Source of the DNA: an uncultured Pseudobdellovibrionaceae bacterium
GTDB lineage: Bacteria; Bdellovibrionota; Bdellovibrionia; Bdellovibrionales; JAGQZY01
NCBI GenBank assembly: GCA_964588335.1
Contig: CAZPOV010000008.1
Location: forward strand, 68,918 to 132,917
Length of the DNA: 64,000 bases
Reading direction: 5' to 3'
The notes under the pieces are model-generated. The model did no database searches, was not told the DNA's origin, and was given only the letters and a program-made list of their open reading frames with translations. Positions 4,484 through 14,303 of this stretch are shown one piece after another. The position numbers and the translations under genes are program-made. Every line of letters starts with the position of its first letter. Position 1 is the first letter of the stretch.

Positions 4484-4596
4484 AATGGGGCCTCCTCCAT
4501 TTTTCTGAGTCGGAGTGTACACTCTTTCTTTTAAACAATCTAGACTCTTCAGATAATCTTTTGCGATTCTTTTGGATTTGTTTTACTTCACTACTC

Positions 4597-5787
4597 ATGG
4601 ATCGAATGGAATTTATAAAACATTCATGGCTGGCCTATCCCAGTTCAGAAAAAATCCCGAAACGGGCAGTGTGTGGGCGTGTCCAAGCCATCGCATCGGA
4701 TTCCATAGAGTTACAGGGAACCGAAGCTCGACACACACTCTTCACGGCCGAAGTGACCCAAGGTCGCCACCCACTCTTGGGCGCGACTTGTGAGATTTCC
4801 CACTTGCAAGTGGGCGATTGGGTGGCTTGGTTGCCCGAATCCAAAGGACTTTTTCTATTGTCTCCTTGCCTGAGTGAAGCTCCCCCTCAGTCCTCGGTGG
4901 AGGCTGAGCAGTGGTCGATGTTTTTAACAAAAGTCGAACACTTTTTTGTTGGTCAGGGTTATCTTCATTTGCGAACGCCTTTTTTGGTGCCGTCTCCAGG
5001 TGTTGATCACCATATTGATTTTTTAAAAGTCGAAGCCAGTCGGACAAAAAGACGGTGGACACTGCCCACCAGTCCGGAAATTCATTTGAAAAAATTTTTA
5101 TGCCAAGGCTATCAAAAAATTTTTGAAATCAAGAACTGCTTTCGAGACGACCTTCCAGGGCCACAGCACAAGGTCGAATTCACCATGATTGAGTGGTACC
5201 AGAGTTTTGCCACCCTTGATGACATTATCGATGACCTCAGAAACCTGTTGTCGGAGTTGACCGACCGGTCCATGGATCTGCAAGTTAGAGATCTTGCTGA
5301 CGTTTTTGAGGAAAAAACCGGATGCGCCTTGAGTCCCAAGACCAGCCGGTCTGAACTCAGTGGTTGGGCGCAAGCTCTTGGAATTGAAACTTCAGTTGAT
5401 GATGACTGGAATGATCTCTTCTTCCGCCTTTTCATGGAAAAGGTGGAGCCTTATTTGGGGCAGGATAGACCAATTGTATTAAAAAAATTTCCGTCACAGC
5501 AGGCGTCCTTGGCTCAGATTGACGAACAAGGGTGGGCCCAGCGATTTGAACTTTACTGGCGCGGTGTCGAACTGGCTAATGCTTATTTAGAAGTCAATAG
5601 CCCAGAGGAGAATCGGGCGCGGTTCGCAAGTGAAGAGTCACTCCGTCAGCAGGCCGGGGGTGATTTGGCCCCTCTGGATCAAGACTACTTTCGATGTTTA
5701 GAGCTGGGAATGCCTCCGGCCAGTGGTATCGCCCTGGGTTTGGATCGCTTGTATTCTGTGTTAAATAATAGAGATCGTCTGTCCTGA
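4597..5787 (+). CDS. epmA: EF-P lysine ligase-like class II aminoacyl-tRNA-synthetase paralog (EpmA/GenX/PoxA-like) with an extra N-terminal domain
   Basis: Class II core motifs are present: GYLHLRTPFLV, TSPEIHLKKFL, FEIKNCFRDD, EFTMIEWY, FELYWRGVELANAY and GIALGLDRL. ATG at 4597 is preferred to TTG at 4561. About 100 aa precede the catalytic core. Confidence 0.7.
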   Translation: MDRMEFIKHSWLAYPSSEKIPKRAVCGRVQAIASDSIELQGTEARHTLFTAEVTQGRHPLLGATCEISHLQVGDWVAWLPESKGLFLLSPCLSEAPPQSSVEAEQWSMFLTKVEHFFVGQGYLHLRTPFLVPSPGVDHHIDFLKVEASRTKRRWTLPTSPEIHLKKFLCQGYQKIFEIKNCFRDDLPGPQHKVEFTMIEWYQSFATLDDIIDDLRNLLSELTDRSMDLQVRDLADVFEEKTGCALSPKTSRSELSGWAQALGIETSVDDDWNDLFFRLFMEKVEPYLGQDRPIVLKKFPSQQASLAQIDEQGWAQRFELYWRGVELANAYLEVNSPEENRARFASEESLRQQAGGDLAPLDQDYFRCLELGMPPASGIALGLDRLYSVLNNRDRLS

Positions 5788-5886: not shown

Positions 5887-7647
5887 ATGTTGGGGTACTC
5901 ATTGCAATTAGAAATGGAAAAAACCAGCCAGGTCGCACCGATGTCTGACATTTGCCGTCAATGGCAGCAAAGTGGTCAGATCGATATGGACTGGTATTTT
6001 GAGCTCGCCGAGAAATTTGGCAGCCAGAAAATCATTTTTAATTCAGTGCAAGTCGAATCGCCCCTTTTTAATCGTCTTAAAGAGAAAACCCAACAGCATC
6101 AATTGGCGCCGGTTTATGTGGTCACCGCTGAGCAGTTTCTTGAGATTGAAAAGTTGCAAGAGCATTTGAATGAAGGCGTGCATTACACCATCCTCATTTA
6201 TTCGCCACTGTCCACCGAGATGATCTGTCTGGTGGATAAAATGCAGGCTTATCTCTCGCAACTTAGTTTTGTGATTTTAGCAAGGAAGGACTGGAATGTT
6301 CGTAACTGCTATCGTTCGGTTCCGCATTTTATGCGATCGCGATTGTTCGTTGATTTTCCGGTGTCGATTCATGAGAGTGATCCTTTTTACGAGCCAGCTG
6401 AATTGACTTCAACCCGACAGAATTTTGAGAAAGATTTTCTCGACCAAGATATTCCTTCGTTCTGTCCGAACCTGGGCTTGTACAACGAGTGGGGTAAAAA
6501 AAACATCTCGCACTTTTCGAAGCCAAGAAAGCTTTTGAAAACAAAGCCGAAGGTTTCAGTCATTGCTTTGGATCCAGATAAATTAAAACCACTTTTGGAC
6601 AGCAAAGTTTTGCAGAAGTCTCCAGAAGACTTTGAAATTTTAATCACCCGGGTGGCGGGGCAGAAAACTAAAGTCATTCCTAAAATCAAAGCCGTTACTT
6701 CGACTCGGTATTGGGCGCATCCTGTGGATGCAGCGAAACCGGTTTCTGAGAAGGTACTGGCCAACTTCACCGCCAGTCAAGCCGACGGCGATATTCTTGT
6801 CTTCCTCGACTCGCAAGACGAAGACAATTTGGATGGGCTGTTTTCTGTCTTACTCGCCGGTGAGGTTAATTTTGGAAAGTTATTGATTCGAAAAAATCTC
6901 TTGGTTTTTTCAAAACAGGGCTTCTTTGCAGCCGGTGGTTTTGATGATTTACTGACCTCTTGGGAAGCCGATCGCATCCGATTGCAAAACACACTCTACT
7001 CCAGTTTATTAACTGAGGAGCAAACTAAGAATATTGGTGCCGTTCTAAAAAACGTAAAAAACTCCTGTGACCAATTGTTGCTCGCCCATCGCTTCGCCGA
7101 TCGCATCGAAGACTTTGGTTTTTTGGCAGGAGGAGCTCCTAAAACTCAAGAGTTGATGCAAAAAAAAATCTATGAAGAAGTTTTTGGATACCACAAAGAT
7201 GATTTGAAGCAGGCCCATAAAGTGATTTATCAATCTTCGGTGGGTGTGGCTGTTGAAGGGAGCCTTAAGCGATCGCTCGATTTTGTTCTGCGTTACATTC
7301 AGTTACACGCCTGGAGGTTAAGTCCTTTGCGGATCCGGCACCAGCTTCGGGTGAATTATTGGCAGTACAATATTTTTCATCACGCCTATCACTTTATTAA
7401 AATGCACGCCTGGAGAGTCAATCCTTTCTCCCATGCTTGGATCTGGTTTTTTAACCCCTGGAGCTACAAGATCACTTGGTGGCTTTGGTATTCGCCTCAA
7501 CGCCTGTATGGTTGGTGGGTTCGTGGTTACTGGCAGGCTTACCGTGTGGCTTTTCCGATTCGCAAAATTTACTACTTCCTGCATTTTCAATATGAAAAAA
7601 GAATTTTAGGACTCCATTCAAAACGTACAAAAATAAGAGAAAGTTAG
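5887..7647 (+). CDS. Hypothetical protein with a weak GT-A-like central segment and a Trp/aromatic-rich C-terminal repeat region
   Basis: 586-aa ORF, first gene of the operon. The central VSVIALDPD…ILVFLDSQDED is only weakly GT2-like. The C-terminal ~100 aa hold about a dozen Trp and a duplicated HAWR(L/V)xP motif. Confidence 0.55.
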   Translation: MLGYSLQLEMEKTSQVAPMSDICRQWQQSGQIDMDWYFELAEKFGSQKIIFNSVQVESPLFNRLKEKTQQHQLAPVYVVTAEQFLEIEKLQEHLNEGVHYTILIYSPLSTEMICLVDKMQAYLSQLSFVILARKDWNVRNCYRSVPHFMRSRLFVDFPVSIHESDPFYEPAELTSTRQNFEKDFLDQDIPSFCPNLGLYNEWGKKNISHFSKPRKLLKTKPKVSVIALDPDKLKPLLDSKVLQKSPEDFEILITRVAGQKTKVIPKIKAVTSTRYWAHPVDAAKPVSEKVLANFTASQADGDILVFLDSQDEDNLDGLFSVLLAGEVNFGKLLIRKNLLVFSKQGFFAAGGFDDLLTSWEADRIRLQNTLYSSLLTEEQTKNIGAVLKNVKNSCDQLLLAHRFADRIEDFGFLAGGAPKTQELMQKKIYEEVFGYHKDDLKQAHKVIYQSSVGVAVEGSLKRSLDFVLRYIQLHAWRLSPLRIRHQLRVNYWQYNIFHHAYHFIKMHAWRVNPFSHAWIWFFNPWSYKITWWLWYSPQRLYGWWVRGYWQAYRVAFPIRKIYYFLHFQYEKRILGLHSKRTKIRES

Positions 7648-7648
7648 A

Positions 7649-8587
7649 ATGAAGTTTTCGATTGTGATTCCAACCCACAGACGACATCAGAGTTTGATTC
7701 ATTTGCTTGAATCGATCAAAAAACAAACCTATGAGCCTTCTCTATTGGAAATCAATATTGTCACCAACCTTCCGGATCCCTTTTTTGAGTTTTCTCAGTT
7801 TCGAGAGGTTGCTGAAGGTTTGGATTGGAATGTTTATACTGTCAAAGCCTTAGGTGTGAATAAGGCTCGCAATCTCGGCATCAGGAAAGCCCAAGGTGAC
7901 CTCGTATTGCTCTTGGATGACGACTGTGAGCTGAAATCTTCAAACTACCTGTCCGAGCTTGAAGGTTGGCATCAGCGCCATCCGCGGGCGGTGGCCATCG
8001 GTGGATCGTATGCGGTCGATCACACGGCGACACCTCTGGACCGCGCCTATAATTGTGTGGCTAAGCAGTGGCAGGCTCTGGATCATTTTGGAGATTACCG
8101 ATCCAGTCGGTTGGTCGGCGGCAACGTTTGTTATAAGAAGGATTTGCTTTTGCGGTCCGGTGAGTTTTTTGATGAAGGTATTGCCTTTGGTGGTGCCGAG
8201 GCCGAGTTTCATTGGCGCTTGAATAAAAAGGGTTTCGAAACCCTTTTTATTGAGTCGCTTGAAGTTTTTCACAAGACTCAATTGCGGGTCGACGACTTGG
8301 TTCGTAAAGCTGTGTTGCAAGCGCAAGGACATTTGCGATATGAAATTGATGACGGCTTCTCCGATAAGGCCAGTCGCACTTATCAAAACAAACGACTGTT
8401 GCTGGCCCGTGAGTGCTCGCGCGATTTCGAAGAGTTCCATGAAATTGTGCATTGGATGAATTTGTTCGACTGGGCCTACAACTACACCTGTCTCCACCCG
8501 AGTGTGACGCCTAGAAAGGTGTACTCAAAATCGAAAAGATGGTCTGGTAAAAGTTCGATCAAGCCAACACTGGAGGCGAGACTTTGA
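7649..8587 (+). CDS. Glycosyltransferase family 2
   Basis: N-terminal FSIVIPTHRR…LLESIKKQTY and the DxD-type LLLDDDCEL. The start lies 1 nt after the upstream stop. Confidence 0.8.
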   Translation: MKFSIVIPTHRRHQSLIHLLESIKKQTYEPSLLEINIVTNLPDPFFEFSQFREVAEGLDWNVYTVKALGVNKARNLGIRKAQGDLVLLLDDDCELKSSNYLSELEGWHQRHPRAVAIGGSYAVDHTATPLDRAYNCVAKQWQALDHFGDYRSSRLVGGNVCYKKDLLLRSGEFFDEGIAFGGAEAEFHWRLNKKGFETLFIESLEVFHKTQLRVDDLVRKAVLQAQGHLRYEIDDGFSDKASRTYQNKRLLLARECSRDFEEFHEIVHWMNLFDWAYNYTCLHPSVTPRKVYSKSKRWSGKSSIKPTLEARL

Positions 8588-10293
8588 TTACGAAATCCTT
8601 GCACTCGTCGATTCAGCCTGATCCAACCGTGAAGTCTTATTATTGGGAGGGCACCAAGTATTATTACTTGCCCCTCTTTTCAAAGACCTTGATGAGCCCA
8701 GTTATCGAAACCGCCCTTGGTGCAAACAACCCGGTGGATCGAAATTGGCCTCAGATTCGCGAGTCTGTATTGAAAGCCACAGCCGGACACTACAGCCATA
8801 TAAAAATCCCGTTGGATCGAGTTCAAAATGAGGTCGTTAGCGAAATTGAAAATTATTTGGATATCGAAACAAACTTGGGATTGATTTACCAGGTTTGCAG
8901 CAGCTTCTTGTTTGATGATGAGTTCTACGCTTGGCTTAAAACCTTAGGCTCTGTGCGAATTGAGTGGATTCTCGATGAACGCAATAAAACAATCGATACA
9001 CGCTTACTTGAGATCTCAAAAGGCTTGGCAGAAAGCCATGTCAGCGTGGTGGTTCACCGTGATTTGGACTGGCGACAGGTTTTAGGTGGCTCGGTCTTCA
9101 AAAAATTCAAGACGATTCATCTGTATTTTAGTTACCAATTTGAATTGTCTAGTCCGTTTCTCAACTGTAAAGAAAGTCATAAAATTGTCGGGATGTTGCG
9201 AAAGAAATTCCCTCGTCATGAATTTTTACCACCGAAGGGTGTTGACCTTTGGGATCATCGCGCACGCTCTGACTTCGACATGGAACCTTTGGTCTTTCCT
9301 TGTTTTCAAACTCGAAGTCGCAACCCTGATTTGAAATACTCGGTGATTATTCCAACCTACAACAATCAAAACCATCTGCGAGTGGTTCTCAAACATCTTT
9401 ACAAGCAGAATGTCGGTTTGGATCAATTCGAAGTGATTGTTGTTGATGACGGCGGCACCGATCAAACTCAACCCCTAGTCATTGAGCTTCTCAATAGTTT
9501 TCCTGAACCCATGAATTTTAAGTACGTCTTCTTTCAAAGACACCGCAAAAGAGTGATGGGTGATTCTCAGTACCGAGCCGGAATTTCAAGAAATGTAGGT
9601 GTTAAAAATAGCGACGCAGAAATTCTTTGTTTTCTAGATTCCGATATCATTACGCCCGCAGATTATTTGCAAAAGGTAGGTGAGGGGCTGCAAGAGTATG
9701 ATGCTTTGCAGGCCAAACGCATCAACCTGAGCCAGTATGCTAGCAACCTGGATTTTGAATACGGTAGTGTCGATGAAGAAAAGGACTGCATACCCGATGA
9801 AAGTTACTGGGAAGAATTCATTGCCAACACCACGCAATGGGATCAGCTCCCTTATAATTGGAAATATGTCTGCACCCATAGTTTTTCATTACGCAAAGAC
9901 CTGTTTTGGAAAGTCGGTGGACTGAAGAAGAATTATATATTCTACGGATTTGAAGACACTGACTTGGGTTACCGTCTGGTTAAAGGCGGCTTCAGGCTGC
10001 ACCTTCTGGATGCGAAAGTCTATCATATGTTCCATGAGAACACTCGATCAGAGTTTATGAACTTGAAGTCGTTAAGACACAGTCTCCTGAGTCGTACTGC
10101 CCAAATTTTCTACCTCCATCATTTGGATGAGGATATTTTTGAAAACCTCTTGGGTTTTATGGAGCCTGAACCGACTTTCCAACGAGTGATCAATCGCATA
10201 TTTAAAACAATGAGTTTGCAATTTTTGTGGCGCCCTAGGCCCATGGTTTATCGAAGTGTCGGTCGGGCTGCTAAGGTGGCCTATGAAAATTGA
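8584..10293 (+). CDS. Two-domain protein: unknown N-terminal ~250 aa plus a C-terminal family 2 glycosyltransferase
   Basis: TTG start overlaps the upstream TGA (TTGA), with GGAGG 6 nt upstream. GT2 motifs YSVIIPTYNN, VIVVDDGGTDQT and FLDSDII sit in the C-terminal half. Confidence 0.8.
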   Translation: MITKSLHSSIQPDPTVKSYYWEGTKYYYLPLFSKTLMSPVIETALGANNPVDRNWPQIRESVLKATAGHYSHIKIPLDRVQNEVVSEIENYLDIETNLGLIYQVCSSFLFDDEFYAWLKTLGSVRIEWILDERNKTIDTRLLEISKGLAESHVSVVVHRDLDWRQVLGGSVFKKFKTIHLYFSYQFELSSPFLNCKESHKIVGMLRKKFPRHEFLPPKGVDLWDHRARSDFDMEPLVFPCFQTRSRNPDLKYSVIIPTYNNQNHLRVVLKHLYKQNVGLDQFEVIVVDDGGTDQTQPLVIELLNSFPEPMNFKYVFFQRHRKRVMGDSQYRAGISRNVGVKNSDAEILCFLDSDIITPADYLQKVGEGLQEYDALQAKRINLSQYASNLDFEYGSVDEEKDCIPDESYWEEFIANTTQWDQLPYNWKYVCTHSFSLRKDLFWKVGGLKKNYIFYGFEDTDLGYRLVKGGFRLHLLDAKVYHMFHENTRSEFMNLKSLRHSLLSRTAQIFYLHHLDEDIFENLLGFMEPEPTFQRVINRIFKTMSLQFLWRPRPMVYRSVGRAAKVAYEN

Positions 10294-11557
10294 CGATCTT
10301 AATGAATCAAAAACATTCTGTGTCTTGCCATTTATCCACGCCGCGACTTTGACGGATGGGCAAACGCCCCTGTGTTGCGTTTCTGAGGAGCGGTCCGGGG
10401 TCAACCTCAACAAAGGGACCATCGCCGACCACTGGAACAGTCGTTATATGAAAAACATCCGTCAACAGATGTTAAAAGGCAAGCCCGTAAAAGACTGTCG
10501 CCGTTGTTATGAGGAAGAGAAAAATGGTTACCGCAGCCATCGTGTTATCGAAAACAAAGCGTGGCGAGAGAAATTGGGCGAACAGGCCATCGAGGAAATT
10601 GTTGGTCGAGTCGAGGCCAGTGGGGAAACCAAACAAGGGGTTATCGCCATAGACTTGCGCTTGGGCAACACCTGTAACTTGCAATGTGTGATGTGCCAAC
10701 CTCGGGAAAGCTCAAAATGGAAGGGTGCCGGTCAAAAATTCCTGACCGAACTTCGCGACCATGGTTTAAAAAAAGAGTGGCGCTATAAAAATGACATAAA
10801 AGTCGAGCAGTTTGAATGGTACCGCAACGCCAAGTTCTGGGAGAATTTAAAAACCTTTTTGCCGACTCTTCGAGAAATCATCATTGGTGGCGGCGAACCG
10901 ATGCTGATCAAAGAGCATTTGAAATTTATAAAAGAAACCGCAGAATCGGGCGAGGCCAGTCACATCCATTTGCGTTACCATACCAATATGACTGTTTTTC
11001 CAGAGGAGATGGTGCCTTATTGGGAGAAATTCGAACGGGTTGAATTCTTTTCCAGCATAGATGGCATGGAAGATATCGGCCATTATGTCCGCTATCCTGC
11101 AAAATGGGATATTGTCGAAAAAAATATCCGTAAAATTGACAAGCTTGGCGACAATATCCTTTTGCGGCTTCTGTATAGTGTGAGTGCTATGAACGTGCAT
11201 CACTTACCCGACTTCATACGTTGGGTTCGCTCAGAAAATTTTAGCAAGTACGAGCATTTTTCCAGTATGCAAGCTTTTGTCCATCCGGGCTTGGTGCATT
11301 GGCCACAGTATTTGAATGTCAAAGTTTTACCCCAGGAATACAAACAGGCTGTAACAGAGGAGTTTGATCGACTCAGAGAAGAGCTTTCTGATGAGCCTTT
11401 TGACAAGTACGAGGGTATTGTCAATTTTATGAACTCCCAAGATTGGAGCGAAAAGCTGCCACAGTTTAATGATTACGTCAGAGTGTTGGATAAAACCAGG
11501 GGCACTGATTTTTACTCCGTCTTCCCGGATCTGAGCGAGTCGGTTTTAAGCGTTTGA
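10283..11557 (+). CDS. Radical SAM enzyme with an N-terminal SPASM/twitch-like Cys-rich domain (paralog 1)
   Basis: ATG at 10283 follows AAGGTGG. The N-terminal region reads FCVLPF…DGQTPLCC…WNS…CRRCY. The core has GNTCNLQCVMC (CX3CX2C) and IIGGGEPML. Confidence 0.85.
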   Translation: MKIDDLNESKTFCVLPFIHAATLTDGQTPLCCVSEERSGVNLNKGTIADHWNSRYMKNIRQQMLKGKPVKDCRRCYEEEKNGYRSHRVIENKAWREKLGEQAIEEIVGRVEASGETKQGVIAIDLRLGNTCNLQCVMCQPRESSKWKGAGQKFLTELRDHGLKKEWRYKNDIKVEQFEWYRNAKFWENLKTFLPTLREIIIGGGEPMLIKEHLKFIKETAESGEASHIHLRYHTNMTVFPEEMVPYWEKFERVEFFSSIDGMEDIGHYVRYPAKWDIVEKNIRKIDKLGDNILLRLLYSVSAMNVHHLPDFIRWVRSENFSKYEHFSSMQAFVHPGLVHWPQYLNVKVLPQEYKQAVTEEFDRLREELSDEPFDKYEGIVNFMNSQDWSEKLPQFNDYVRVLDKTRGTDFYSVFPDLSESVLSV

Positions 11558-11567
11558 GAGAGATGAA

Positions 11568-12953
11568 ATGAAAGAATATTCGAAGACATTTTGTGTTTAC
11601 CCATGGATTCAGCAGCAAACGACGCCAACCGGGAAAATTAATTTCTGTTGTATCTCAATGCACACTTTTGTGCCGCGTGAAGATGGCAAGCCCATGATGC
11701 TTGATAAAGAGACGTTTAAAGATGCTTGGAACTCTGGCTACATGAAAGATATCCGCAAAAAAATGGTTAACGGTGAAGCTGTTACCGGGTGTGAAACCTG
11801 TTACGAGCAAGAAAAGGTCGGTAAACGCAGCTATCGTCAAGCCCACAACGAGGAATGGTCGAAGAAATTGGGAGCCAGAAAAATCGAATCCTTAGTCAAT
11901 CGATCCATCGACAACGATTTTTTTGTCGACCAGCCGCCGGCTTACCTGGATCTGCGATTAGGAAACCTGTGCAATTTAAAGTGCCGGATGTGCAATCCCT
12001 ATAATAGTGTTCAGATTCAAAAAGAATGGGAAAAGTTGGATAAGAAGTCTGACAATCAGTATTCCAAGTTTTGGAACAAGTATGGTTTGGAGTTTGGAAC
12101 CTGTACCCCCTGGTATGAGAGTGATCAATTTTGGACCGGTGTCGAGGAGAACATCCCGTATTTGAAAAAAGTCTATATGACTGGTGGTGAGCCGACCCTG
12201 ATTGAGGGTAACTATCGGTTTTTAAATAAATGCCGCGAAATGGGCTACGCCAATAAGATTGAACTCTTTTTCAATATCAATTTTACCAATTTAAAAGATG
12301 ATTTCATTGCGCAACTGAACGATTTTCATTGGGCCAGTGTGAATGCAAGTCTTGATGGCTACGGCATCGTTAATGAGTACATTCGTGCCCCGAGCCGCTG
12401 GGATGTAATCGATAAGAATTTTAGGAAATTGGCTAAGCAGGGTGGGCGTCGAGTGGCGCTTGGTATCAGTCCCGTCATTCAGATTTACAATATTTTAAAT
12501 ATCGTCGATCTGCTGGAGTACGCGGAAGAGGTTATGGAAGAGTTTAATCGCGATATTATTATCGATTTTCTTTTCTGTTTGCATCCGGACTTCCTTGATA
12601 TCATCCACTTACCGGACAATATAAAAATAGAAGCTTTGGCTCGTCTTGAGGAATTCAAGATGTCGTCCCAGACCTATGCAAAGAAAACCGACAAATCTTT
12701 CTTTTTGAGAAATGGTGTGGACAGCACGATCACGCGTCTTGAAAAATCAATGGGGCAGGAAAACCCAGAAATGATTAAAGACTTTATCCGCTACAGTCGA
12801 ACCCTGGATCAAGAGCGCCGCCAAAGCATGCGTGACTGTCTCCCAGAGTTGGTCTTTCTCTTGGAAGAGGCGGGCTACAGCTATGACGACCAACCATCTA
12901 TGGTGGAGATGGCGGGGCAAGCCAAGGAGGTTGAGAGTGTCAGACACCCATAA
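11568..12953 (+). CDS. Radical SAM enzyme with an N-terminal SPASM/twitch-like Cys-rich domain (paralog 2)
   Basis: Same layout as paralog 1: FCVYPW…INFCC…WNS…CETCY, then GNLCNLKCRMC and MTGGEPTL. Confidence 0.85.
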   Translation: MKEYSKTFCVYPWIQQQTTPTGKINFCCISMHTFVPREDGKPMMLDKETFKDAWNSGYMKDIRKKMVNGEAVTGCETCYEQEKVGKRSYRQAHNEEWSKKLGARKIESLVNRSIDNDFFVDQPPAYLDLRLGNLCNLKCRMCNPYNSVQIQKEWEKLDKKSDNQYSKFWNKYGLEFGTCTPWYESDQFWTGVEENIPYLKKVYMTGGEPTLIEGNYRFLNKCREMGYANKIELFFNINFTNLKDDFIAQLNDFHWASVNASLDGYGIVNEYIRAPSRWDVIDKNFRKLAKQGGRRVALGISPVIQIYNILNIVDLLEYAEEVMEEFNRDIIIDFLFCLHPDFLDIIHLPDNIKIEALARLEEFKMSSQTYAKKTDKSFFLRNGVDSTITRLEKSMGQENPEMIKDFIRYSRTLDQERRQSMRDCLPELVFLLEEAGYSYDDQPSMVEMAGQAKEVESVRHP

Positions 12954-13962
12954 GTCGATCACTTTGGTCAATTATGAGGGCGATGCTCTGGCCCTTTCAG
13001 CCGAAGAGGCCATGATTAAAAAATACAACTCTTGGCAAGGGTGGCAATGCTCGGCAGGGGCCGAAAATGTTTTTATTGATGCCGATGGATACGTCTACGT
13101 GGCGGCTTGCAAAGTCAAAGGCAAACAGGGTAACGTTTTTCAAAATCAATGGGAGCTGGATGAGCAGTGGACGACGTGTCCTGCCAAATGGTGCATGTGT
13201 GGCCAGGATATGCAGTTGCGGAAGGTTCGCGATGAATCCTTCTTTTCCCTTCTCGATTATCCACCGGCAAGTAACGTCGACGAGATGGACCGTGTCGATT
13301 GGGTTGTCCCCCATTACTACCACGGCTTTGTGACGCATCCGCGATTTGTGACTTGGGACCTGGGGCGCCGCTGCAACTACTCTTGTAGCTATTGTCATCC
13401 CCTGATTTCCAATCAAACGGATCCGCTGCGCACCGAGGACGAGTTGATGGCTGCGGTCGACCTTATCGAAAAGCGCTTCACCAAAAACAATAAGGCCAAA
13501 TGGATTTTTACGGGCGGGGAACCGACAATCATTCCCTCCTACATGAAAATGATAAAAAGCCTTCGCGGTAAGGGGCATGACCTGCATACTCAGACCAACG
13601 GTAGTCGAAATCCCGATTATCATCGCGAATTGATTGGTTACAGTTTTGTTGGCGTCAGCGTTCATCTTGAGTTTGCCAATGACGATCGATTGTTAAAAAA
13701 CTTCGAAGCCATCATTGATGAAAAACATAAAAACAAAACGGCTGGTTATAACTGGTTCGGCGTTCGGATCATGGTGGGCCCTGGCAATCTTCAGCGGGCC
13801 TTAGAATTAAAGACACGAACCCAGGGTATCAAACACTTCAGTAAACATGGACATATTACTTTGAGTCCTCTTTACGAAAACAATACCACGGACCCAACTC
13901 ACCATGGCCGAATGCTGACTTACGACCCGGAAGAGTTCAAACAAATCCTATCCCACGCCTAA
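12937..13962 (+). CDS. Radical SAM enzyme with an N-terminal Cys-rich domain (paralog 3, divergent)
   Basis: GTG at 12937 lies 6 nt after AGGAGG, and the 12832 ORF start is an overlap artefact. The N-terminal region reads WQCSAG…IDADGYVYVAAC…GN…CPAKWCMC. The core has GRRCNYSCSYC and FTGGEPTI. Confidence 0.8.
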   Translation: MSDTHKSITLVNYEGDALALSAEEAMIKKYNSWQGWQCSAGAENVFIDADGYVYVAACKVKGKQGNVFQNQWELDEQWTTCPAKWCMCGQDMQLRKVRDESFFSLLDYPPASNVDEMDRVDWVVPHYYHGFVTHPRFVTWDLGRRCNYSCSYCHPLISNQTDPLRTEDELMAAVDLIEKRFTKNNKAKWIFTGGEPTIIPSYMKMIKSLRGKGHDLHTQTNGSRNPDYHRELIGYSFVGVSVHLEFANDDRLLKNFEAIIDEKHKNKTAGYNWFGVRIMVGPGNLQRALELKTRTQGIKHFSKHGHITLSPLYENNTTDPTHHGRMLTYDPEEFKQILSHA

Positions 13963-14110
13963 AACAACCGCCGCACCATATACCCAGAAGGTGCCAGGCA
14001 CGTTTCGGGTAAAACAAACGCCGCACCATATACCCAGAAGGTGCCAGGCACGTTTCGGGTAAAACAAACGCCGCACCATATACCCAGAAGGTGCCAGGCA
14101 CGTTGCGGGT
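13961..14110. repeat. Tandem direct repeat, 3 copies of a 50-bp unit
   Basis: The unit is aaaacaaacgccgcaccatatacccagaaggtgccaggcacgtttcgggt, at 13961-14010, 14011-14060 and 14061-14110. Copy 1 has one substitution (13968), and so does copy 3 (14105). The repeat starts inside the stop codon of the last radical-SAM gene. Confidence 0.95.
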
Positions 14111-14303
14111 ACACGGTGCGGCACGGTTCTGTGGTTAAGAGTCGTTTCTTAGCTTTCTTACCTCGACATATTTTGATAGGTGGTTATGATAAAATCTACT
14201 GTCTCGATCTTCGCTTATTGCCTCTATAAATATTTTCAGGGTTTTTATTCTCAACATATTTAAATACTATCAGTCCTTGAGTTCGCAACACTGTGGCTCA
14301 GTT

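Follow-up and report, generated by a model that had tools for sequence, protein, structure and literature searches.

Radical S-adenosylmethionine (SAM) enzymes occur alongside glycosyltransferases (GTs) in several described systems. In clusters for peptides that are made by the ribosome and modified after translation (RiPPs), including the sactipeptides, ranthipeptides and glycocins, radical SAM/SPASM enzymes with auxiliary clusters are sometimes found together with GT2-type glycosyltransferases. The calditol-linked lipids of Sulfolobus are made by glycosyl transfer and then a radical SAM calditol synthase (2026 review, PMC13459092), and for pelagimyophages a study reports a host-recognition cluster whose hypervariable fibre-gene region holds cassettes of radical SAM genes, along with numerous glycosyltransferases and an Asp/Asn beta-hydroxylase (PMC7029224). 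A further group of radical SAM enzymes, NCBIfam NF033640 ('twitch domain-containing radical SAM protein', the N_Twi_rSAM subfamily), is a sequence-defined subfamily only, for which no characterised member, solved structure or paper was found. Here we describe an operon of six open reading frames (ORF1 to ORF6; 5887-13962, forward strand) that joins two GT2 glycosyltransferases and a degenerate paralog of one of them to three radical SAM enzymes, two of which belong to NF033640. It lies in a 64,000-nucleotide stretch of DNA, hereafter the window, from an uncultured Pseudobdellovibrionaceae bacterium (GCA_964588335.1, contig CAZPOV010000008.1). All genes and domains placed below by window coordinates are on the forward strand; other loci and proteins carry L and P numbers.

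Our preferred reading, to which we give a probability of roughly 0.45, is that the operon encodes a membrane-peripheral glycosyltransferase machine and a three-radical-SAM tailoring cassette that share a single envelope glycoconjugate as their substrate, be it a glycolipid or a lipid-linked glycan. ORF3 (the active GT2) and ORF2 (a second GT2) would take sugars from nucleotide-sugar donors and attach them to a membrane-associated acceptor, while ORF1, catalytically dead, would partner ORF3 and hold the complex at the inner membrane by means of its aromatic/basic helical repeats and tail. ORF5, ORF4 and ORF6 would each cleave SAM at a [4Fe-4S] cluster bound by the CX3CX2C motif, hold an auxiliary cluster in an N-terminal Cys-rich (twitch-type) domain, and carry out successive hydrogen abstractions on the sugar or aglycone, at C-H bonds that are unactivated; the likely outcome would be an oxidation, an epimerisation, a deoxygenation or a new C-C bond. 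The Cys-less N-terminal domains (N-domains) of ORF1 and ORF3 may serve to bind either the substrate in common or the radical SAM enzymes themselves. The substrate class, the membrane association, the ORF1-ORF3 complex, the order of the steps and the types of reaction are what we infer from the evidence that follows.

The three radical SAM enzymes are the most conserved genes of the neighbourhood and are under strong constraint: ORF4 to ORF6 share 85-87% identity with their orthologs in two syntenic loci (L002 and L017), compared with 57-58% for the upstream EpmA homolog, 79% for the downstream MFS transporter and 61-65% for ORF1 and ORF2. Each exceeds the gathering cutoff of the Pfam model PF04055 (29.5 bits), at 35.3 bits for ORF4 (424 aa; 10283..11557), 37.0 bits for ORF5 (461 aa; 11568..12953) and 50.5 bits for ORF6 (341 aa; 12937..13962). 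ORF4 and ORF5 are N-terminal-twitch enzymes, founding what we term the ORF4 type and the ORF5 type; they match NF033640 at 383.4 bits (model positions 1-396 of 398) and 367.5 bits (1-394 of 398), respectively, against a cutoff of 170 bits, and are 30% identical to one another over their full length. In both, a SPASM/twitch-like Cys-rich domain precedes the radical SAM core, and PF13186 (cutoff 21.5 bits) scores 22.9 bits at aa 22-85 of ORF4, above its cutoff, and 19.9 bits at aa 9-79 of ORF5, below it. ORF6 scores 38.5 bits with NF033640, over the core only and thus under the cutoff for membership, and falls under the cutoff of every NCBIfam model. Its N-terminal domain (nt 13042-13224), with five invariant Cys residues, resembles the C-terminal part of the STM4011 family at 40.6 bits (cutoff 200), and among species-representative genomes full-length ORF6 orthologs were found only in Bdellovibrionota. 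The ORF4 and ORF5 orthogroups are ancient, and ORF6 is a distinct third family. An earlier note on this DNA had spoken of three radical SAM paralogs; it was right about the three enzymes, which are not equivalent and comprise two twitch orthogroups plus the separate family of ORF6.

From their cofactor-ligand motifs, ORF4, ORF5 and ORF6 are all predicted to be intact radical SAM enzymes. The CX3CX2C motifs lie at nt 10673-10696, 11967-11990 and 13372-13395. In a 55-sequence alignment of the ORF4 family, C13, C31, C32, C72, C75, C131, C135, C138 and the GGEP motif at 203-206 are invariant, and a 41-sequence alignment of the ORF6 family shows the same for C38, C58, C81, C86, C88, C146, C150, C153 and GGEP at 193-196. 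The objection that these reading frames might be degenerate fails because the cluster Cys residues and GGEP are invariant in the orthologs, and the three CX3CX2C-plus-GGEP enzymes that had been proposed from the letters of the sequence are borne out by these alignments together with the Pfam Radical_SAM matches. The AlphaFold (AF2) model of ORF4 has a predicted local distance difference test score (pLDDT) of 94.8 and resembles solved structures at the level of the superfamily only, with template modelling (TM) scores of 0.3-0.4 (SkfB, CteB, viperin, anSME, BlsE, MoaA, Tes, DesII). PDB sequence searches with ORF1, ORF4 and ORF6 returned nothing significant.

Two of the remaining genes encode, on motif and profile evidence, GT2 glycosyltransferases, in agreement with the earlier note, which had seen clear GT2 signatures in both. 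ORF2 (312 aa; 7649..8587) is of the GT-A type and matches PF00535 at 55 bits (cutoff 23.3); in NCBIfam it shows family-level likeness only, the best being EpsD at 79 bits against a cutoff of 370. ORF3 (569 aa; 8584..10293) comprises a Cys-less N-domain (aa 1-250) with no family match, a catalytic GT2 domain that includes a Glyco_transf_7C segment (aa 251-505; PF00535 69.7 bits, PF02709 30.4 bits) and a short basic/aromatic tail. Its nucleotide-binding and DXD motifs read VVDDGGTD and FLDSDI, ORF2 has LLLDDDC, and D288, D289, D352 and D354 are invariant among the ORF3 relatives.

ORF1 (586 aa; 5887..7647) found no match in Pfam, NCBIfam, PHROGs, PADLOC or PDB sequence searches, and its homologs form only eight clusters among 5.8 billion proteins. 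We interpret it as a pseudo-glycosyltransferase paralog of ORF3 because the two N-domains are homologous, the model matches GT-A folds and TIM barrels, and the GT2 motifs have been lost. The N-terminal (beta/alpha) domain (5941..6486), assigned by profile homology, AF2 model and Foldseek, has no CX3CX2C and aligns with the N-domain of ORF3 at 96.5% hhalign probability (E 1e-9). The degenerate GT-A-like domain (6544..7086) aligns weakly with the N-terminal half of the ORF3 GT2 domain (hhalign E 0.0075); Foldseek places this middle domain among GT-A structures (6p61, E 1.7e-4; 3bcv; 2z86) and the N-domain among TIM barrels. Thus the weak GT-like core that had been suspected in the first gene is supported by the model. 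Both folded domains have a pLDDT of about 80-90, and the C-terminus is helical with low pLDDT. In the family alignment 'ITRVAGQ' takes the place of VDDG, and of the DXD motif no more than the first Asp (D308) is conserved; with no Pfam match and neither DD nor DXD conserved, ORF1 falls outside the GT2 family. Its C-terminal region (7279..7647) consists of HxWRxxP-type repeats, whose number varies widely among homologs, and a tail, P-x-RK-IYYF..FQYEKR, that is invariant and also ends the long ORF3-like proteins P0226, P0228, P0231 and P0235. Repeats and tail are presumed to form a membrane-interface anchor. Among the ORF1 and ORF3 relatives P0216, P0217, P0231 and P0228 the aromatic/basic repeat (for example 'LHLWKYSPVRLKHW' or 'LWRLRV') ranges from about 3 to more than 15 copies.

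The N-domains of ORF1 and ORF3 themselves point back to radical SAM enzymes. An exhaustive HMMER search found only 20 representatives of the ORF3 N-domain among 1.8 billion cluster representatives, and the 14 relatives read as full sequences are all N-domain plus GT2 proteins. Four homologs (P0228, P0230, P0235, P0239) have kept CX3CX2C at beta1, exactly where the sequence of ORF3 is 'FSKTLMSPVIET', and in two further ones two of the three cysteines survive. The 1265-aa protein P0228 naturally joins two halves in one chain, one ORF3-like and the other ORF1-like (97.9% in hhalign against the ORF1 family), and its second N-domain has kept CX3CX2C and matches PF04055 with an E value of 1.7e-5 at 25.5 bits, just below the cutoff. 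The link to radical SAM enzymes is drawn through this protein because the N-domain profiles of ORF3 and ORF1, compared directly with those of the ORF4 and ORF6 families, gave no significant match (E 0.017-0.27), with the best local alignments at the CX3CX2C site. We therefore read the N-domains of ORF1 and ORF3 as putative Cys-less descendants of a radical SAM domain, and regard ORF1 as the probable partner of ORF3. A scan of metagenome contigs with the ORF3-family alignment was dominated by generic GT2 genes, and no match spanned the N-domain.

The layout of the six genes predicts a single transcription unit. Listing the reading frames and reading every junction directly gave gaps and overlaps of +1, -4, -11, +10 and -17 nt, as the earlier note had reported in describing six tightly packed genes on one strand. 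The TAG stop of ORF1 (7645-7647) is separated by 1 nt from the ORF2 ATG at 7649, and the ORF2 stop overlaps the TTG start of ORF3 as TTGA (8584-8587), with GGAGG 7 nt upstream. The ORF4 ATG (10283) overlaps ORF3 by 11 nt (stop 10291-10293) and has AAGGTGG upstream; ORF4 ends at 11557, 10 nt ahead of the ORF5 ATG at 11568; and the ORF6 GTG at 12937, with AAGGAGG 7 nt upstream, lies within a 17-nt overlap with ORF5, which ends at 12953. This start of ORF6 agrees with a separate public gene call of 341 aa on an identical short contig. The start of ORF1 may be 5887, 5914 or 5941, the choice being uncertain because its closest homolog starts at the Met of residue 19. Promoter- and terminator-like sites turn up within the operon no more often than they do in shuffled sequence. 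The tight arrangement is further borne out in three Pseudobdellovibrionaceae-like genomes, which keep the gene order with abutting or overlapping junctions and have flanks identical in kind, with GcvP and EpmA upstream and MFS, RlmN and PfkB downstream; two (L002, L017) have all six genes, and one (L004) has five, ORF6 being missing. In this last genome (GCA_041252335.1) a spacer of only 143 nt separates the ORF6-less operon from the MFS gene, and the same contig holds elsewhere (L088) a 42%-identical ORF6-type gene, divergent from another NF033640 gene.

Linkage of radical SAM enzymes to GT2 proteins, fusions included, recurs outside the clade of the window. ORF3-like glycosyltransferases adjoin ORF6-type and twitch radical SAM genes in L015 and L018, and L016 holds five twitch-like and three or four ORF6-like genes together with two GT2 proteins; one of these two (L016:10963-12612) unites an ORF6-type N-terminal Cys domain, a core without CX3CX2C and a GT2 domain (hhalign 98.3%). 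A twitch radical SAM gene lies amid four GT2 genes, two sulfotransferases and a 2-oxoglutarate (2OG) oxygenase in L008, three twitch and three ORF6-type radical SAM genes accompany GT2, DegT, YdjC, PhyH and a large Asp_Arg_Hydrox protein in L089, and a twitch pair stands beside PIG-L, GT2 and UbiA in L252.

The radical SAM genes also travel by themselves. The ORF5-type and ORF4-type pair, usually with a third radical SAM gene, is a portable cassette. The pair is present in L006, L009, L014 and L251, and ORF6 orthologs usually adjoin NF033640 genes (L009, L013, L014, L016, L088, L089, L090, L251). IMG/VR yielded 127 matching loci, and in 56 of the 80 viral contigs analysed an ORF5-type gene is followed by an ORF4-type gene, mostly with a third radical SAM gene behind them that has an ORF6-like core (hhalign 99%) and no N-terminal Cys domain. 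In this viral third enzyme (L107:8232-9269 and other members of cluster c1) the ORF6-like core is N-terminal and is followed by about 165 extra C-terminal residues. Because of these extra residues, and because the N-domain of ORF6 resembles the C-terminal part of STM4011, the profiles suggest that the auxiliary domain has been permuted between lineages. Uncultured tailed phages commonly have this fold, as predicted viral structures confirm (TM up to 0.81), and the viral loci carry Asp_Arg_Hydrox cupins and a fibre-like gene. The contigs gave no match to a collection of isolate phages, and no annotation was obtained for the viral neighbour families c2, c3, c4, c7 and c9; a GT8-like assignment of family c3, whose sole basis was a glycogenin match at E 0.36, is not supported.

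Individual loci show how varied the surroundings of these genes are. Seven NF033640-like paralogs stand between NADH dehydrogenase and ATP synthase genes in L006 (GCA_019752925.1, 8707-18489), with no glycosyltransferase. In a phage-like contig (L007, Logan SRR15377950) short reading frames on one strand number in the dozens, and scattered through them are three radical SAM genes of the twitch type; the contig also holds Acb1 (anti-CBASS), a nucleoside 2-deoxyribosyltransferase and a split carbamoyltransferase. A SelO protein adenylyltransferase gene and a Fic-domain gene come directly after an ORF6/ORF5/ORF4-type trio in L014 (9076-12089), and a B12-binding radical SAM gene and a type III polyketide synthase gene flank a twitch/ORF6-type pair in L025 (6871-8604, 11042-12097).

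Several observations weigh against the preferred reading. None of the six proteins has a characterised homolog, no evidence is specific to a substrate, and the best-matching solved structures are generic radical SAM enzymes (TM 0.3-0.4), some of them peptide-modifying. The operon has no gene for nucleotide-sugar synthesis, a flippase, a polymerase or a polyprenyl-phosphate priming transferase. The grounds for placing ORF1 at the membrane are its composition and a helical model of low confidence, and those for the origin proposed for the N-domains are a sub-threshold Pfam match and a chain of profile homologies. The cassette also occurs free of glycosyltransferases (L006, L009, L088, L090, L251), a GT2 gene lies within 10 kb in about 4 of the 16 ORF6-type genome loci, and none of the viral neighbours was confirmed as a glycosyltransferase in our annotation attempts. 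Since only about a quarter of the ORF6-type loci have a GT2 gene at that distance, glycosyltransferases are frequent but not obligate partners of the cassette. The six genes and their EpmA, MFS, RlmN and PfkB flanks include none of the marks of an O-antigen, capsule or exopolysaccharide cluster, Wzx/Wzy- or ABC-dependent: no priming transferase, no flippase or ABC transporter, no polymerase or chain-length regulator and no gene for nucleotide-sugar synthesis.

Of the alternatives, modification of a protein or peptide survives best, although we consider it unlikely. The radical SAM enzymes would crosslink, epimerise or oxidise a target whose gene lies elsewhere, either a ribosomal peptide or a protein that is secreted or exposed on the surface, and the GT2 enzymes would then glycosylate it, so that the operon would serve to mature a glycoprotein or glycopeptide. 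The closest structures to the ORF4 model do include the peptide- or protein-modifying twitch/SPASM enzymes SkfB, CteB and anSME, but this likeness to RiPP enzymes is at superfamily level only (TM 0.34-0.40), and to it can be added a weak NCBIfam likeness to the RiPP maturases HxsC, PapB and CcpM. The auxiliary domain is N-terminal, against the C-terminal SPASM domain typical of RiPP maturases. The Glyco_transf_7C segment of ORF3 (PF02709) is of a kind also found in polypeptide GalNAc-transferases; genes of the Asp/Asn beta-hydroxylase family, members of which hydroxylate proteins, stand beside the cassette in the viral loci and in L089; and SelO and Fic genes flank it in L014. Against this, the homolog contexts are rich in DegT, PIG-L, YdjC, sulfotransferases and several GT2 proteins. 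No short precursor reading frame lies within or beside the operon, and Pfam and NCBIfam found no RRE/PqqD domain, leader peptidase or ABC exporter in the six proteins or the flanks. Here too the earlier note stands where it had seen no precursor-sized reading frame, B12-binding domain, peptidase or ABC gene: there is no credible short precursor, no small reading frame is conserved, and the only ones present are in a strain-specific tandem repeat; Pfam shows no PF02310 (B12-binding) match in ORF4 to ORF6; and neither Pfam nor NCBIfam finds the rest. Its view that the operon more probably tailors a glycan or glycolipid than matures a RiPP fits the homolog contexts (GT2, DegT, PIG-L, YdjC, sulfotransferase) and the fusion of radical SAM to GT2.

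Tailoring of a membrane lipid, in which the cassette would modify acyl or alkyl chains or head groups and the GT2 enzymes would add a sugar head group, so that the radical chemistry falls on the lipid of an unusual glycolipid, we judge distinctly unlikely. The radical SAM enzymes of archaeal tetraether lipids act in this manner, and the calditol-linked lipids, with glycosyl transfer followed by a radical SAM step, provide a precedent (PMC13459092). The weak sequence and structure matches of our proteins to the tetraether synthase Tes, however, are no stronger than those to other radical SAM enzymes, and the operon is without lipid-synthesis genes. L009 and L251 have genes for a patatin-like phospholipase and a GDSL-lipase-like protein on the flanks of the cassette; these two loci are syntenic relatives and therefore count as one observation. 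The amphipathic aromatic/basic tails of ORF1 to ORF3 suggest action at a membrane surface, yet the cassette is also found in viral contigs, where lipid tailoring is less expected.

A nucleotide or nucleic-acid substrate is highly improbable. In such a scheme the twitch enzymes would act on a nucleotide or on DNA or RNA bases in the manner of viperin, MoaA or QueE, and the glycosyltransferases would glycosylate the product. Viperin, MoaA and BlsE are among the structural neighbours and PHROG matches to QueE-like families were obtained, but all of these matches are at superfamily level and under family cutoffs (the viperin model NF038283 gives 42 bits against 180). Viral contigs contain the family in abundance, the twitch pair of L252 has genes for dCMP deaminase, QueC and GATase nearby, and nucleoside deoxyribosyltransferase and carbamoyltransferase genes lie near twitch paralogs in the phage-like contig L007; the operon of the window, in contrast, occupies a conserved chromosomal core region without DNA-metabolism genes, its glycosyltransferases bear membrane-type tails, and PADLOC finds no membership of a defence system. 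A role in defence was rejected because PADLOC gives weak pVip core matches only, with no other component and no system membership, and the PHROG matches are generic. Mere co-location, in which functionally unrelated glycosyltransferase and radical SAM genes share a promoter in this lineage, would fit the many genomes where the cassette is GT-free and the L004 operon, otherwise identical yet without ORF6, but is most improbable in view of the conserved start/stop overlap across the boundary between the two gene sets (11 nt in the window, 4 nt in L004), the independent co-location of GT2 and radical SAM genes in at least six unrelated loci, and the covalent fusions of radical-SAM-type domains to GT2.

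The EpmA (EF-P lysine ligase, GenX) homolog upstream (4561-5787, 408 aa) scores 274 bits with TIGR00462, slightly under the cutoff of 287; its match to the EpmA model begins at residue 116, implying an N-terminal extension of about 115 residues, and its relatives are called at 397-401 aa. EF-P modification also employs a radical SAM enzyme, EpmB. A functional tie between the operon and this gene was rejected because the adjacency is confined to the syntenic clade and absent from every other cassette locus. The downstream MFS gene was likewise rejected as a member of the operon, because it lies beyond a 314-nt spacer, has its own promoter-like site (14163-14190, the best one found) and is linked to the operon within the clade only; it appears to be a separate transcription unit. 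The spacer is filled with a repeat, as had been noticed earlier: a 50-bp unit present in three copies with 98% match (13960-14111, no strand assigned; TRF), which begins at the stop codon of ORF6. The unit is unique within the window and absent from all 252 loci that were fetched, relatives of 86-87% identity included, and is a strain-specific insertion or expansion. The 196-nt repeat region folds far better than shuffled sequences (z = -5.4) and may form a structured 3' end or a terminator. Across the whole 64-kb window neither tRNA genes nor Rfam families at the gathering threshold were found.

The operon matters beyond its own clade. The N-terminal-twitch family comprises hundreds of clusters in public data, usually as two or more paralogs, and no reaction, structure or substrate was found for it. 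This operon is a tractable entry point, with three intact, strongly conserved enzymes in translational coupling with glycosyltransferases, and with ORF1 and ORF3 carrying what would be a fossil radical SAM domain. Its solution could reveal new radical chemistry on sugars or lipids, explain an envelope component of the Bdellovibrio-like predators, in which the recognition of prey and the protection of the predator itself centre on the surface, and assign a role to the radical SAM cassettes of phage hypervariable regions. The pseudo-radical-SAM/pseudo-GT scaffold, if it is confirmed, would add a new case to the pseudoenzymes that organise a biosynthetic complex. A broader proposal, which we regard as doubtful, is that of an unrecognised class of physically integrated radical SAM-glycosyltransferase machinery for glycoconjugates, in which the fusions would be active in some relatives and reduced here to pseudo-scaffolds, and the portable cassette of three radical SAM enzymes would functionalise C-H bonds of surface sugars in a new series of steps; predatory bacteria and large aquatic phages would both employ it for remodelling cell surfaces.

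Comparison with described systems defines how far the resemblance goes. The literature yielded no paper on the operon, on N-terminal twitch enzymes or on radical SAM-glycosyltransferase fusions, and no characterised equivalent was found in NCBIfam, the PDB or the literature, which upholds the initial impression that the combination is not a characterised pathway. ORF4 and ORF5 are like the NF033640 subfamily from end to end, in the N-terminal Cys-rich twitch domain, in CX3CX2C and in GGEP; ORF6 lies outside it. BtrN, anSME, MoaA, SkfB, CteB, DesII, BlsE and viperin pair a partial TIM-barrel, SAM-cleaving core with an extra Cys-ligated Fe-S domain, as ORF4 to ORF6 do, and the hydrogen abstraction and auxiliary-cluster electron handling of twitch/SPASM and of sugar and nucleotide radical SAM enzymes likely follow the same logic here. 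The auxiliary domain of ORF4 to ORF6, however, is N-terminal (permuted), structural similarity stays at TM 0.3-0.4 with 12-18% identity, and the family-specific NCBIfam models for those enzymes all fall far under cutoff. RiPP clusters share the auxiliary-cluster radical SAM enzymes and, in some cases, the GT2-type glycosyltransferases, but the operon has no precursor, RRE, protease or exporter, places its auxiliary domain at the N-terminus and sets three different radical SAM enzymes in tandem.

With the pelagimyophage cassettes, the viral loci considered here share the ORF5-type/ORF4-type pair, a third radical SAM gene, Asp_Arg_Hydrox cupins and a fibre-like gene; the operon of the window differs in being bacterial, chromosomal and equipped with different (GT2) transferases, and the IMG/VR contigs, searched against isolate phages, gave no match that would place them with the pelagimyophages. 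The calditol pathway shares a concept, a glycosyltransferase product remodelled by a radical SAM enzyme on a membrane glycoconjugate. That likeness is an analogy only, since that system is archaeal and uses one radical SAM enzyme without a twitch N-domain. The operon would thus be of a known kind, glycan or glycolipid assembly with radical SAM tailoring, for which the calditol lipids are the precedent; what is new is the three-enzyme cassette, its presence in predatory bacteria and viruses, and the pseudo-radical-SAM/pseudo-GT scaffold.

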